Positions 7,977 to 15,477 of a stretch of 64,000 nt of DNA are shown one piece after another (within the stretch, counting starts at the first letter, position 1; each line of letters begins with the position of its first letter). Made by a program: the position numbers and the translations under genes. Source of the DNA: Peptococcaceae bacterium UBA6096 (GTDB taxonomy: Bacteria; Bacillota; Peptococcia; DRI-13; UBA5745); contig DIWW01000001.1 in assembly GCA_002435905.1 (NCBI GenBank), positions 23,283 to 87,282 on the forward strand. Direction: 5' to 3'. The notes beneath the pieces were generated by a model, which saw only the letters and a list, made by a program, of their open reading frames with translations, ran no database searches and was not told the origin of the DNA.

Positions 7977-8054
7977 CGGGGCGTAGCTCAGTTTGGCTAG
8001 AGCGCTACCTTGGGGTGGTAGAGGCCGCAAGTTCAAGTCTTGTCGCTCCGACCA
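7977..8054 (+). tRNA. tRNA-Pro(GGG)
   Basis: Acceptor stem CGGGGCG/CGCTCCG, anticodon arm CTACC-TTGGGGT-GGTAG, TTC loop, encoded CCA. Confidence 0.95.
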
Positions 8055-8062
8055 GGAATTCA

Positions 8063-8097
8063 CCCTCTTGTCTATTGATTGGGCAAGAGGTTTTTTT
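8063..8097 (+). terminator. Terminator after tRNA-Pro(GGG)
   Basis: CCTCTTG...CAAGAGG followed by TTTTTTT. Confidence 0.8.
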
Positions 8098-8218
8098 ATG
8101 CCTTGCCATGAGCTTTGGAATCTTGCTAAATCGTAACGAAAGCCGATGGACATGGCGGCAGAAAGCAGAGTTTGAAAAAATTTAGATGGCATAAAACCAA
8201 AAAACTTTCAGAAAGGCC

Positions 8219-8247
8219 TTGACGAGGATAGGGATATTTGCTAAAAT
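8219..8247 (+). promoter_or_regulatory. sigmaA promoter of the tRNA cluster
   Basis: TTGACG-17 bp-TAAAAT with extended TG. Confidence 0.8.
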
Positions 8248-8265
8248 ACATTTTGTCACGTCAAG

Positions 8266-8342
8266 CGGGGCATAGCGCAGTTTGGTAGCGCACCTGGTTT
8301 GGGACCAGGGGGTCGGGGGTTCGAATCCCTCTGCCCCGACCA
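8266..8342 (+). tRNA. tRNA-Pro(TGG)
   Basis: CCTGG-TTTGGGA-CCAGG anticodon arm, GTTCGAATC, CCA end. Confidence 0.95.
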
Positions 8343-8372
8343 TTTTCTCAGGTGCATGACAAATCCTTACGT

Positions 8373-8447
8373 GGCCCGGTGGTCAAGCGGTCAAGACACG
8401 GCCCTTTCAAGGCTGTAACACGGGTTCGATTCCCGTCCGGGTCACCA
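8373..8447 (+). tRNA. tRNA-Glu(TTC)
   Basis: CGGCC-CTTTCAA-GGCTG anticodon arm, CCA end. Confidence 0.95.
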
Positions 8448-8492
8448 ATTAGTTTTACTTTTGGGCTTACCAAAGCCCGATCCCCATAATGC

Positions 8493-8569
8493 GGAGCCGT
8501 GGTGTAGTGGCCTAACATGCCTGCCTGTCACGCAGGAGATCGCGAGTTCGACTCTCGTCGGCTCCGCCA
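8493..8569 (+). tRNA. tRNA-Asp(GTC)
   Basis: CCTGC-CTGTCAC-GCAGG anticodon arm, CCA end. Confidence 0.95.
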
Positions 8570-8579
8570 TTTCTTTCTT

Positions 8580-8655
8580 GCCGACATAGCTCAATTGGTA
8601 GAGCAGCTGACTTGTAATCAGCAGGTTGTAGGTTCGAGTCCTATTGTCGGCTCCA
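8580..8655 (+). tRNA. tRNA-Thr(TGT)
   Basis: GCTGA-CTTGTAA-TCAGC anticodon arm, CCA end. Confidence 0.95.
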
Positions 8656-8667
8656 TCATCGAATTGT

Positions 8668-8753
8668 GGAGGGATTCCCGAGTTGGCCAAAGGGGGCAGA
8701 CTGTAAATCTGCTGGCACTGCCTTCGAAGGTTCGAATCCTTCTCCCTCCACCA
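8668..8753 (+). tRNA. tRNA-Tyr(GTA)
   Basis: GCAGA-CTGTAAA-TCTGC anticodon arm, long variable arm, CCA end. Confidence 0.95.
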
Positions 8754-8766
8754 CTTTTGATTTTAT

Positions 8767-8842
8767 TGGGGCGTCGCCAAGTTGGTAAGGCAACGGACTC
8801 TGACTCCGTTATTCGTAGGTTCGAGTCCTACCGCCCCAGCCA
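8767..8842 (+). tRNA. tRNA-Gln(CTG)
   Basis: ACGGA-CTCTGAC-TCCGT anticodon arm, CCA end. Confidence 0.95.
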
Positions 8843-8844
8843 TA

Positions 8845-8874
8845 TTGACAAAAGACGGCGACAACCGTTAGAAT
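8845..8874 (+). promoter_or_regulatory. Internal sigmaA promoter in front of tRNA-Leu
   Basis: TTGACA-18 bp-TAGAAT immediately after tRNA-Gln, 13 bp before tRNA-Leu. Confidence 0.65.
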
Positions 8875-8887
8875 ATTCCTTGTATAA

Positions 8888-8974
8888 GCGGACGTGGCGG
8901 AATCGGCAGACGCGCTAGGTTCAGGTCCTAGTGATCGCAAGGTCATGGAGGTTCAAGTCCTCTCGTCCGCACCA
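8888..8974 (+). tRNA. tRNA-Leu(CAG)
   Basis: CTAGG-TTCAGGT-CCTAG anticodon arm, long variable arm, CCA end. Confidence 0.95.
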
Positions 8975-14100: not shown

Positions 14101-14188
14101 CGAATGACCCATTGAGGATGAAATGTAAAAAGATTGTATAAGGGCCGGTTAAAAACATGAATAAACATCACATTCGTTCGAAAAACAA

Positions 14189-14217
14189 TTGACAGAAAAT
14201 TCAGTATATGATATTAT
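14189..14217 (+). promoter_or_regulatory. Strong sigmaA promoter driving the structured RNA / lipoprotein genes
   Basis: TTGACA-17 bp-TATTAT with extended TG. Confidence 0.8.
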
Positions 14218-14220
14218 GAT

Positions 14221-14520
14221 CTCAACCCCAGAAATGGTCGAAAGATCAAAGTACGAGAACCCCAAAAACCGGAAGTAACAGGGATATTCATAGATCCTTC
14301 GGGATTCATATCTCTGAAGCAAAACTCTGATTGAGAAGGAAGCAGACGCAAGTTTGCAACCCATCAAAAGGAAAAGCCGGCGATTCCAACCAACAATAGA
14401 AATATTGGAAAATTGGATACGGGGAAAAATTGAAAGGAGGAGTACTCAATTGCAGTACGACCTCGAGTGATGGGCAGGAAAATTCCGAAAGGGACCACCT
14501 GTCCATCACTAGTTTAAATA
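14221..14520 (+). ncRNA. Unassigned structured non-coding RNA (~300 nt; five tetraloop hairpins)
   Basis: GAAA, C(UUCG)G, GCAA, GAAA and GAAA tetraloop-capped stems; 13-bp closing stem 14466-14478/14498-14510; no credible ORF. Confidence 0.6.
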
Positions 14521-14595: not shown

Positions 14596-15477
14596 ATGAT
14601 GAAAAAGATAACAGGATTATTATTGGCGATAGTTTTTTTAATTGCACTTTTCGCAGGCTGCGGCATGATGGGCGTCAATGGAGGTCCACGTGTTGGCGGG
14701 GTCATGCAGAGCGGGGACTGGTTATACTACACACTCAATGGCACACTGTATAACATGAAGCGTGACTGGACTGAAAAGACAAAGATCGCAGACAATTTTG
14801 ATGCTCAGTTCATGATTGTGCGGGATGACATCATCTACTACGCCGACAAGGAAATGAGCGTATATAAGATGATGAGGGACGGCACAGGAAAATCGAAGAT
14901 CATGAGCGGCGAAAATATGTACGGTTTCGAGGTTTCGGGCGACTGGCTGTACTACAGCGTTAAACCAGGCAGCATTTACAGGATAAAGACAGACGGCACT
15001 GGAAAGATGAAGCTGGCCGATATCGACTCTTTTAAAGGCGTTATGTGGGCGTCGGGAGGCTCTGTATATTACATTGACGGAACAAGCTTAATGAAAATGG
15101 CGGAGAACGGCACCGGGGTTATTCAACTTGGAGACAATATTGAGATAAACGGCTTTAAGGATGAGTGGATCTATTACAGTGAGATAAACCAAAAAGGAAA
15201 ACGATTGAACTTAAATAGGATGAAGCTCAATGGCATTGAAAAAGCAAAGCTTGCGGATGGTGGATTTGCTGCCATGGACGGGGACTGGCTATATTATAGT
15301 AAAGATGATGAATGGCTTTACAGATCAAATCTGGACGGAACGGGAGAGGAAAAACTGAACGAAGTGAAAATGTGGAATCTCATGGGTATATGGGGTGATT
15401 ACATCTATTACAGCGAATATGAGGGGCCTGTTTACAGGATCGATCTGGACGGCAGCAACAAGATGGAGCTGAAATAG
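14596..15477 (+). CDS. Lipoprotein with repeated beta-propeller-like units (DUF5050-like)
   Basis: Lipobox LFAGC and repeated GDWLYYS/IYRI..DG units. Confidence 0.75.
   Translation: MMKKITGLLLAIVFLIALFAGCGMMGVNGGPRVGGVMQSGDWLYYTLNGTLYNMKRDWTEKTKIADNFDAQFMIVRDDIIYYADKEMSVYKMMRDGTGKSKIMSGENMYGFEVSGDWLYYSVKPGSIYRIKTDGTGKMKLADIDSFKGVMWASGGSVYYIDGTSLMKMAENGTGVIQLGDNIEINGFKDEWIYYSEINQKGKRLNLNRMKLNGIEKAKLADGGFAAMDGDWLYYSKDDEWLYRSNLDGTGEEKLNEVKMWNLMGIWGDYIYYSEYEGPVYRIDLDGSNKMELK

Follow-up and report, generated by a model that had tools for sequence, protein, structure and literature searches.

An apparently unclassified, multi-copy structured RNA with a Shine–Dalgarno-like 3′ module at a Peptococcaceae locus

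The DNA analysed here, called the window throughout, is a stretch of 64,000 nucleotides from Peptococcaceae bacterium UBA6096 (GenBank assembly GCA_002435905.1, contig DIWW01000001.1, positions 23,283 to 87,282 of the forward strand). An initial annotation had pointed to a non-coding stretch at 14189–14520, proposed to be a structured RNA with its own strong promoter. Sequence comparison confirms this stretch as a real folded RNA of about 290 nucleotides (nt), apparently transcribed from such a promoter. It could be the product of one of four paralogous genes for an unclassified, mostly free-standing structured RNA with a ribosome-engaging 3′ module, a reading in which about half of our confidence is placed. 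The paralogues, a Shine–Dalgarno (SD)-like AAAGGAGG hairpin, a mini open reading frame (ORF) starting with UUG and reaching into the terminal stem, and a CodY-box-like sequence over the −35 hexamer come in addition to what had been described. The main features of the locus are the following.

14187 to 14201, + strand: putative CodY-box-like sequence AATTGACAGAAAATT, 13 of 15 positions identical to AATTTTCWGAAAATT, overlapping the −35 hexamer
14189 to 14217, + strand: predicted sigma-A promoter with TG extension, score 11/12, start of transcription expected at about 14224
14224 to 14512, + strand: the RNA itself, about 290 nt, with both ends inferred, as traced by fold, paralogues, alignments and covariation
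14596 to 15477, + strand: DUF5050 lipoprotein gene (Pfam PF16472, E = 1.3e-34)

The promoter lies where the initial annotation had placed it. TTGACA (14189–14194) is followed by a 17-nt spacer ending in TGa and by TATTAT (14212–14217), and this is the top-scoring promoter-like site of the region. Each of the 27 homologues examined, whatever its lineage, keeps the −35, the 17-nt spacing and the −10; the −35 of these promoters is TTGACA, apart from one TTGACT and one TTGGAC, and A/T-rich DNA lies upstream. No ORF of at least 80 amino acids is found between the promoter and the lipoprotein start at 14596, and the smaller ORFs of the RNA region are not preserved in the paralogues because the indels of the latter are not multiples of three, in agreement with the proposed lack of a credible coding sequence. 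The 311 nt downstream of the promoter fold with a predicted energy of −90.7 kcal/mol, compared with −65.6 ± 5.2 for dinucleotide shuffles (z = −4.87), and none of 100 shuffles reaches this value.

The host genome (2.54 Mb, 26 contigs) contains four copies of the RNA, namely that of the window, a second on contig 24 and the remaining two on contig 8; three copies are present in the sister species. Both contig-8 copies lie within a 635-bp segmental duplication with 96% identity (G000 contig 8, 165626–166261 and 171274–171907, which correspond to L005 1406–2041 and L006 1408–2041), the two units being 5.6 kb apart. Besides the RNA gene, each unit carries one terminator upstream, a further small terminator and a long palindrome resembling a bidirectional terminator. 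The flanks of the two duplicates differ, with a gltD-like gene and an unknown gene in one case, and genes for a small secreted protein and groEL in the other.

The genomes searched beyond this host are mostly metagenome-assembled genomes (MAGs). A pattern derived from the most conserved stretch retrieved a 400-nt homologue in the Anaerovoracaceae MAG G061, and BLAST from this homologue added nine further Anaerovoracaceae-related genomes out of 100, mostly with one copy each. The Anaerovoracaceae total thus comprises nine full-length copies and one remnant among 101 genomes. Past the range of BLAST, the searches used a covariance model of the ~100-nt 3′ module only, and lineages with a different 3′ end would therefore be missed; weak hits were inspected by eye and bare terminators were discarded. 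With this model, positive genomes were found in two families of the window's GTDB class (4/4 genomes in family f4 and 1/9 in family f13), and seven more in an even sample of 150 genomes of the phylum. Family f36, one of those represented in this sample, has 4 positive genomes out of 32. The homologues range from 290 to 590 nt in length and are spread over the sister species, four other families sampled in the class or phylum of the window, and part of Anaerovoracaceae.

A pattern scan of metagenomes returned 42 loci, of which only three are real and near-identical to the sister species, the others being chance matches or a protein repeat. The search pattern indeed also matched a ~134-nt periodic repeat in a long coding-like region, with repeated GGAGGAGTACGCAATTGGAGTA (metagenome contigs L016, L023 and L052), presumably a repeat-domain protein gene unrelated to the RNA. 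Among 151 genomes of the order of G061, only two terminator false positives were obtained, and no match was found in collections of 72,556 plasmids and 50,697 phages. The RNA is missing from most close relatives. In the Anaerovoracaceae genome G069 (L064 1493–1620, − strand), just the SD hairpin and the terminator are left, directly after the stop codon of a DAO-Rieske gene, the 5′ three quarters of the RNA having been deleted naturally. This loss, together with the absence from most relatives, makes it a dispensable and patchy RNA rather than a housekeeping one. A transfer-messenger RNA (tmRNA) or other housekeeping RNA was considered and rejected: ARAGORN places the tmRNA of the host on another contig, and the present RNA is multi-copy, absent from most relatives and largely deleted in G069.

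The Rfam scan proposed with the initial annotation returned no known family. At gathering thresholds, Rfam 15 recognizes only eight tRNAs elsewhere in the window; in a 900-nt region scanned at E ≤ 10, nothing matches within the RNA, and five distant homologues (homologues from three other lineages were scanned overall) gave no match at E ≤ 5. The whole set is thus, as judged from its conservation, an unclassified structured RNA family that is patchy in anaerobic Bacillota and absent from Rfam 15.

Compensatory changes are found repeatedly among these homologues, which together with the folding energy upholds the proposal of a structured RNA with its own promoter. RNAalifold on seven sequences yields 52 pairs, 15 of which are compensatory. 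When 31 hits of the 3′ module are aligned, 96% of the cells are paired, in an alignment fitted to the model, which favours this score; slid controls reach 45–55%, double changes occur in 16 of the 19 pairs and none of 500 shuffles does equally well. The window structure was also projected onto a plain MAFFT alignment of six genus-level copies, giving 85% of paired cells versus 30–43% in slid controls, with double changes in 21 of 84 pairs. The five tetraloop hairpins that had been described by eye all exist, and each is kept in these six copies. Compensatory changes affect all five pairs of the hairpin at 14235–14248; that at 14279–14316 has 72% of its cells paired and three double changes, that at 14394–14407 93% and three double changes, and that at 14466–14510 99% of paired cells. 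The long-range AUUGAG/CUCAAU pair proposed at the same time is not supported: it is present in the sequence, is kept in only two of five paralogues and does no better than shuffles. More generally, pseudoknots between the SD-hairpin loop and the core, this pair included, are not conserved and do no better than shuffles. A pairing of the 5′-terminal UCAA with a linker UUGA was dropped as well, since it exists in two copies only. Frequent G–U pairs assign the RNA to the + strand. The covariation thus supports the predicted helices as those of an RNA family. The parts of the window RNA are listed below from 5′ to 3′.

14227 to 14257, + strand: 5′ hairpin hp1, with outer CCC/GAG, an internal loop AGAAA/AAGUA (loop-E/S-turn signature) and inner UGGUC-GAAA-GAUCA (14235–14248)
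14260 to 14263, + strand: 5′ strand of helix P2, CCCC, pairing with GGGG at 14421–14424
14269 to 14272, + strand: 5′ strand of helix P3, CCGG, with its partner at 14377–14380; C–G is replaced by U–A in the copies of contigs 24 and 8
14273 to 14321, + strand: second loop-E-type hairpin, AAGUAA, stem CAGGGAUAU...AUAUCUCUG, apical GAUCC-UUCG-GGAUU, then GAAGC; this is the loop first described as Ic-like
14342 to 14357, + strand: hairpin GCAGAC-GCAA-GUUUGC of the variable core, 79% paired, two double changes
14377 to 14380, + strand: 3′ strand of P3, CCGG, from fold and alignments; UCGG/CCGA in paralogues
14385 to 14417, + strand: 3′ sub-domain, a UCCAA/UUGGA stem around CAAUA-GAAA-UAUUG (14394–14407), both stems 93% paired with compensatory changes
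14421 to 14424, + strand: 3′ strand of P2, GGGG, closing the entire central domain immediately 5′ of the A-rich linker and the SD-like box
14433 to 14440, + strand: Shine–Dalgarno-like box AAAGGAGG, preceded by the A-rich linker, near-invariant in the genus and in Anaerovoracaceae
14437 to 14464, + strand: two-tier SD hairpin, GAGG/CCUC and GUACU/AGUAC, with UUG in its loop CAAUUGC
14450 to 14470, + strand: candidate mini-ORF UUG CAG UAC GAC CUC GAG UGA (M-Q-Y-D-L-E-stop), starting 9 nt after the SD-like box
14466 to 14510, + strand: terminal hairpin, a 13-bp stem with apical UUCC-GAAA-GGGA, followed by UUUAAAU, with no U-run

A common architecture emerges from the homologues, consisting of the promoter, a 5′ loop-E hairpin, P2 and P3 closing a variable multi-stem core, the SD-like hairpin and a long two-part terminal hairpin. 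The core, which follows P3, varies between 150 and 400 nt across the family. P2 was recovered by a blind search at the same position and with different sequences in 12 genomes: its equivalents are CCCUGAAA/UUUCAGGG, GCCCCAU/AUGGGGC, GCCUGAAACG/UGUUUCAGGC, UUUAUCCC/GGGAUAAA and CCUC/GAGG, and the window's genus has only CCCC/GGGG. The paralogues keep the pairing of the second hairpin stem with other sequences, and one of the few differences between the window and the nearly identical sister strain UBA2264 converts a G–U pair of this hairpin to G–C. In the 590-nt homologue of G401 (L094, − strand), the core carries three tandem GAAAGUCUUAU near its 5′ side and three CAGGUUUCAAAA near its 3′ side, perhaps as binding sites or as a helix built from repeats.

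The AGUA words pointed out at the outset are real and belong to family-wide loop-E/S-turn internal loops. A crude scan counts 27 such AGUA/GAA modules across the family where 6.7 are expected. Of 27 copies, 8 carry the hp1 module at nt 8 of the RNA, and these represent five lineages in addition to the window's genus, in a scan that was stricter than needed and missed some others; the internal loop of hp1 reads (A)GAAA opposite AAGUA in the window's genus, in Anaerovoracaceae and in several other lineages. Anaerovoracaceae copies have one to four loop-E hairpins in tandem, and family f4 has them within the core. This modular use of one hairpin, in one to four copies behind a strong promoter, recalls CsrB/RsmZ, with the difference that the module is a loop-E hairpin instead of a GGA loop and that many members have a single one.

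The same motif accounts for the resemblance to group II introns that had suggested a domesticated domain-I fragment. GAAGUAA...GAAGC, the loop described as Ic-like, represents a generic loop-E/S-turn motif, which also forms the 5′ hairpin of the family. No match to the group-II-D1D4 or Intron_gpII models is found in the region at gathering thresholds or at E ≤ 10, nor in five homologues at E ≤ 5. The absence of a GUGYG start, a domain V and a reverse transcriptase (RT) gene, already remarked upon, holds for the sequence, whose flanking genes are ordinary; domain V, RT and any intron-like context are equally lacking in about 30 homologues, and the intron proposal is thus abandoned. An origin as this or another mobile-element RNA appears extremely improbable: several copies in the host genome, the segmental duplication and the proposed likeness to subdomain Ic would fit it, but no locus shows a transposase or repeat ends, the plasmid and phage collections searched lack the RNA, the Anaerovoracaceae loci are syntenic, and the RNA has a conserved promoter and terminator of its own.

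It is also conceivable, if very unlikely, that the RNA is a divergent member of a described family, such as a T-box-like RNA, the raiA motif or the trpB motif, missed by the Rfam models. The second hairpin has the form AAGUAA...GAA-GC(A/G/G/U)-A in four of the five aligning genus copies, a small number of sequences, and this form is not found in other lineages. The AGUA/GAA loop-E thus flanks a variable triplet followed by A, in a manner similar to the T-box Stem I Specifier loop, here with an Ala codon. Unlike a T-box, the RNA lacks an Rfam score, a distal platform, a conserved UGGN bulge and, as already noted at the outset, a T-box sequence: RF00230 does not match the region at E ≤ 10 or five homologues at E ≤ 5, and the loop of the 3′ hairpin is not conserved, with UGCA in the window, UGGU in Anaerovoracaceae and UGGA in family f4. 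Downstream of the copies in the window's genus, no aminoacyl-tRNA synthetase or amino-acid gene is found; only family f4 has a TrpB-like gene.

This TrpB-like gene brings to mind a motif named trpB (SRC-39-1, Narunsky et al. 2024), a hairpin together with a terminator in Firmicutes with varied downstream genes (PMC11109978). According to its published description, that motif counts over 900 examples and is abundant in Firmicutes and Fusobacteria (PMC11109978), whereas the present RNA is rare and patchy. As regards raiA RNAs, they are single-copy, ~210 nt long and typically devoid of terminators (PMC10861870). RF03072 (raiA) has no match in the region at E ≤ 10; a whole-genome raiA search had no match either, its controls being silent as well, which makes it weak evidence. 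With raiA/ModT, OLE and ROOL, the RNA shares a free-standing gene with its own promoter, an ornate covarying fold, a patchy distribution in anaerobic Firmicutes and the lack of a consistent neighbour. It differs from all of them in that none of their Rfam models matches its sequence or structure, in its far smaller number of invariant nucleotides and in the changing size of its core, and from raiA by up to four copies per genome and by the presence of the SD-like hairpin, the possible mini-ORF and the terminator. By kind, the RNA thus sits with orphan structured Firmicutes RNAs such as raiA/ModT and, by these comparisons, is a member of none.

In the 3′ module, the SD hairpin corresponds to helices 1 and 2 of model R2, with 91–92% of paired cells and double changes in 5 of 7 pairs, and the terminal stem is 98% paired across the family, with double changes in 11 of 12 pairs. 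A purine box lies 5–10 nt upstream of the UUG, with an A-rich linker before the box, which reads AAGGAGGG or AAAGGGGG in family f4 and G057; G116 retains AAAGGAGG even though its pairing partner is altered. Starting at the UUG, 6–10 codons lead in frame to a stop situated in the 5′ arm of this stem, with a single lineage as exception. The distance from UUG to stop is 18, 21, 24, 27 or 30 nt depending on the lineage, the stop can be UGA, UAA or UAG, its changes being compensated in the 3′ arm, and the other two frames are mostly open well past the terminal stem. The corresponding peptides would be MQYDLE in the window, M(W/Q/R/C/S)Y(T/A/P/S)(S/P)(K/E)K(G/E) in Anaerovoracaceae, and MQVHLEE, MQSLTGKG, MQYVLESKG and MVQQYIRGKG elsewhere, each followed by the stop. 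No codon is enriched in the way expected of a leader peptide, Trp occurring at codon 2 only in some Anaerovoracaceae. The case for a tiny translated frame from UUG to stop is suggestive, not proven, and its actual translation may be judged about evenly balanced. Since the stop lies within the terminal stem, a ribosome reaching it must have opened this stem.

Such a layout has precedents in upstream-ORF (uORF) attenuators and in ribosome-mediated attenuation of the leader-peptide type. In the fthC and ilvB-II uORF motifs, which are short and invariably lie ahead of one defined gene, an SD and a start are combined with an in-frame stop located in a terminator stem (PMC11109978). The present module resembles them in its purine-rich SD-like box, very short frame and in-frame stop in a terminator-like stem, with translation and hairpin being mutually exclusive; these sequence traits are found together in all lineages but one. 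It differs in that a structured domain of 200–500 nt precedes, the start is UUG or CUG instead of AUG, there is no codon bias toward any amino acid, and the gene that follows varies or is convergent.

The neighbours indeed vary widely. In the window's genus, a co-directional gene follows within 25–130 nt at three of five loci, and the terminal hairpin has no U-run. At the window locus itself, no terminator-like site exists on the + strand and no promoter-like site is found between 14518 and 14596, so that read-through transcription into the lipoprotein gene is likely and the RNA probably doubles as a ~370-nt leader of the DUF5050 lipoprotein mRNA. In most other lineages, the terminal hairpin is an A-tract/U-tract intrinsic terminator. 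At the Anaerovoracaceae locus, which is syntenic across the family, the RNA comes after a co-directional DAO-Rieske oxidoreductase gene, faces a convergent gene for a thioesterase and ends in a textbook terminator of this type. The next gene is convergent in eight Anaerovoracaceae genomes, as well as in G422, G362, G316 and the contig-8 copies, where an extra terminator precedes the convergent genes. Co-directional genes lie downstream in G401, G315, G327 and G410, and in three of the four family-f4 genomes a co-directional TrpB-like (TrpB2-type) gene starts about 125 nt downstream, as identified by eye from N-terminal sequences. On the other side of the RNA in family f4 (L077, L079 and L081), a divergent gene encodes a conserved CPFC-containing N-terminus, also judged by eye. 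Altogether, the co-directional downstream genes encode such different products as the DUF5050 lipoprotein, an NAD-dependent epimerase, the TrpB-like enzyme, an MBL hydrolase, a signal peptidase, YigZ, an ABC ATPase, an MFS transporter and a lipocalin. Since downstream genes are unrelated or convergent, the product of the RNA gene would be the RNA itself. The initial choice between a cis-regulatory and a standalone RNA is thereby mostly settled in favour of the second, given the unrelated or convergent neighbours and the terminators, while a probable leader role is retained at the window locus.

A general cis-acting leader function, of a riboswitch-like or protein-binding sensor placed on a uORF-terminator platform, nevertheless keeps an appreciable though minor probability. 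In this scheme, the core would sense a ligand or factor and thereby set the accessibility of the SD, and translation of the mini-ORF would break the terminator and allow read-through into the next gene. Copies that stand alone would then be orphans, or they would govern antisense read-through into genes that are convergent. The co-directional genes cited above, the missing U-run in the genus and the likeness to the fthC and ilvB-II layout all fit it. They have to be weighed against the lack of a common theme among downstream genes, the convergent ones, and a core whose length runs from ~150 to 400 nt and in which few unpaired bases are invariant, unlike a ligand pocket. Moreover, no TRAP-like or antiterminator alternative was found by eye, and a mere ~70 nt separate the SD-like box from the U-run at its emergence, which leaves little time for coupling.

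A comparable plan would be that of EutX/Rli55, SreA and rnTrpL, riboswitch-controlled or attenuator-derived free small RNAs in which a unit of sensor and terminator gives rise to a discrete trans-acting RNA instead of regulating the gene downstream. The present RNA differs from them in having no known aptamer and no target or ligand that could be named.

The promoter region adds a possible link to nutrition. Within the 64-kb window, no site other than the CodY-box-like AATTGACAGAAAATT comes within two mismatches of the consensus; the 2.54-Mb genome, which carries a CodY gene, has nine such sites in all, and these nine best sites do not form a recognizable CodY regulon. The three other paralogues carry the box at the same place with three mismatches. 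Among the homologues, 20 of 27 have a box with at most three mismatches, at varying positions in A/T-rich DNA, many of them just upstream of the −35. The position of the window's own box over the −35 suggests nutritional control. In family f4, a palindrome-like CGAATTTT-N-AAAATTCG is located upstream of the −35 (L077, L079 and L081).

Several observations weigh against the reading of a free-standing RNA with a ribosome-engaging 3′ module. The putative start is restricted to YUG and UUA, without a single AUG or GUG: most copies have UUG, family f4 has CUG, and UUA is found in G456 and G001:C291, G456 being also out of frame. A structural constraint on the loop therefore fits these data as well as a weak start codon does. 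For the frame to be preserved by chance in four of five length changes, the estimated probability is p ~0.045, a figure obtained after the data had been seen. The peptide is not conserved past what the terminator A-tract and GGG impose, and the AAA-GGG part of the stem is a requirement of any good terminator; if the frame is read, it is thus the act of reading that counts. The loop-E motifs may be purely architectural, and no conserved neighbour indicates a function. Finally, the CodY-like boxes shift position between lineages and lie in A/T-rich DNA, so that an UP element is an equally good reading.

An alternative is a purely structural RNA, a protein-binding sponge or scaffold in which the mini-ORF is coincidental and both the AAAGGAGG/CCUC hairpin and the terminal stem are folding or termination elements. 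Loop-E modules numbering one to four, as in protein-titrating RNAs, a start that is never AUG or GUG and is UUA in two copies, and conserved "K-G" codons explained by the terminator all fit it. This explanation remains unlikely in our view. Against it speak a frame held over five length classes, a stop held through compensated changes and the retention of AAAGGAGG in G116 with a changed partner strand, and the A-rich linker and the 5–10-nt spacing are those of a real initiation region.

According to the favoured reading of a ribosome-engaging RNA, the molecule would act in trans, as a regulatory or scaffold RNA, and its recurring loop-E modules would be places where a protein or a second RNA docks. 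Ribosomes would be engaged by the 3′ module through AAAGGAGG, followed after 5–10 nt by the UUG that opens the frame of 6–10 codons, and a ribosome reading this mini-ORF would melt the terminal stem. As a reading ribosome must melt this stem, ribosome access and integrity of the 3′ hairpin would be mutually exclusive. With half of its length sequestered by its own hairpin, the SD-like box adjoins the core-closing helix, and the core fold could therefore gate ribosome access. In the window's genus, where the terminal hairpin would have lost its U-run, the window copy would serve in addition as the leader of the lipoprotein mRNA, and the CodY-box-like sequence would provide nutritional control. 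A bolder form of this proposal, which we regard as rather unlikely, would define a new Bacillota RNA class: the folded domain would gate ribosome entry to the mini-ORF, the amount, 3′ end or stability of the RNA would report the translational or nutritional state, possibly via CodY, and the loop-E modules would recruit a partner.

Few large structured bacterial RNAs are left without a family, and those that have been characterized (OLE, raiA/ModT, ROOL and GOLLD) each opened new biology. The present RNA combines three traits that do not usually occur together in a free-standing RNA, namely repeated loop-E modules, a variable core closed by conserved long-range helices, and a site resembling a translation start, with a short frame that stops within the terminator. 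If the mini-ORF is read, what becomes of a non-coding RNA would be directly linked to ribosome availability. Should it go unread, the alignment still provides a seed for a new family model and for the annotation of intergenic regions in hard-to-culture anaerobes. As a minor observation on the surroundings, a cluster of eight tRNA genes lies on the + strand at 7977–8971, about 5 kb upstream of the RNA.

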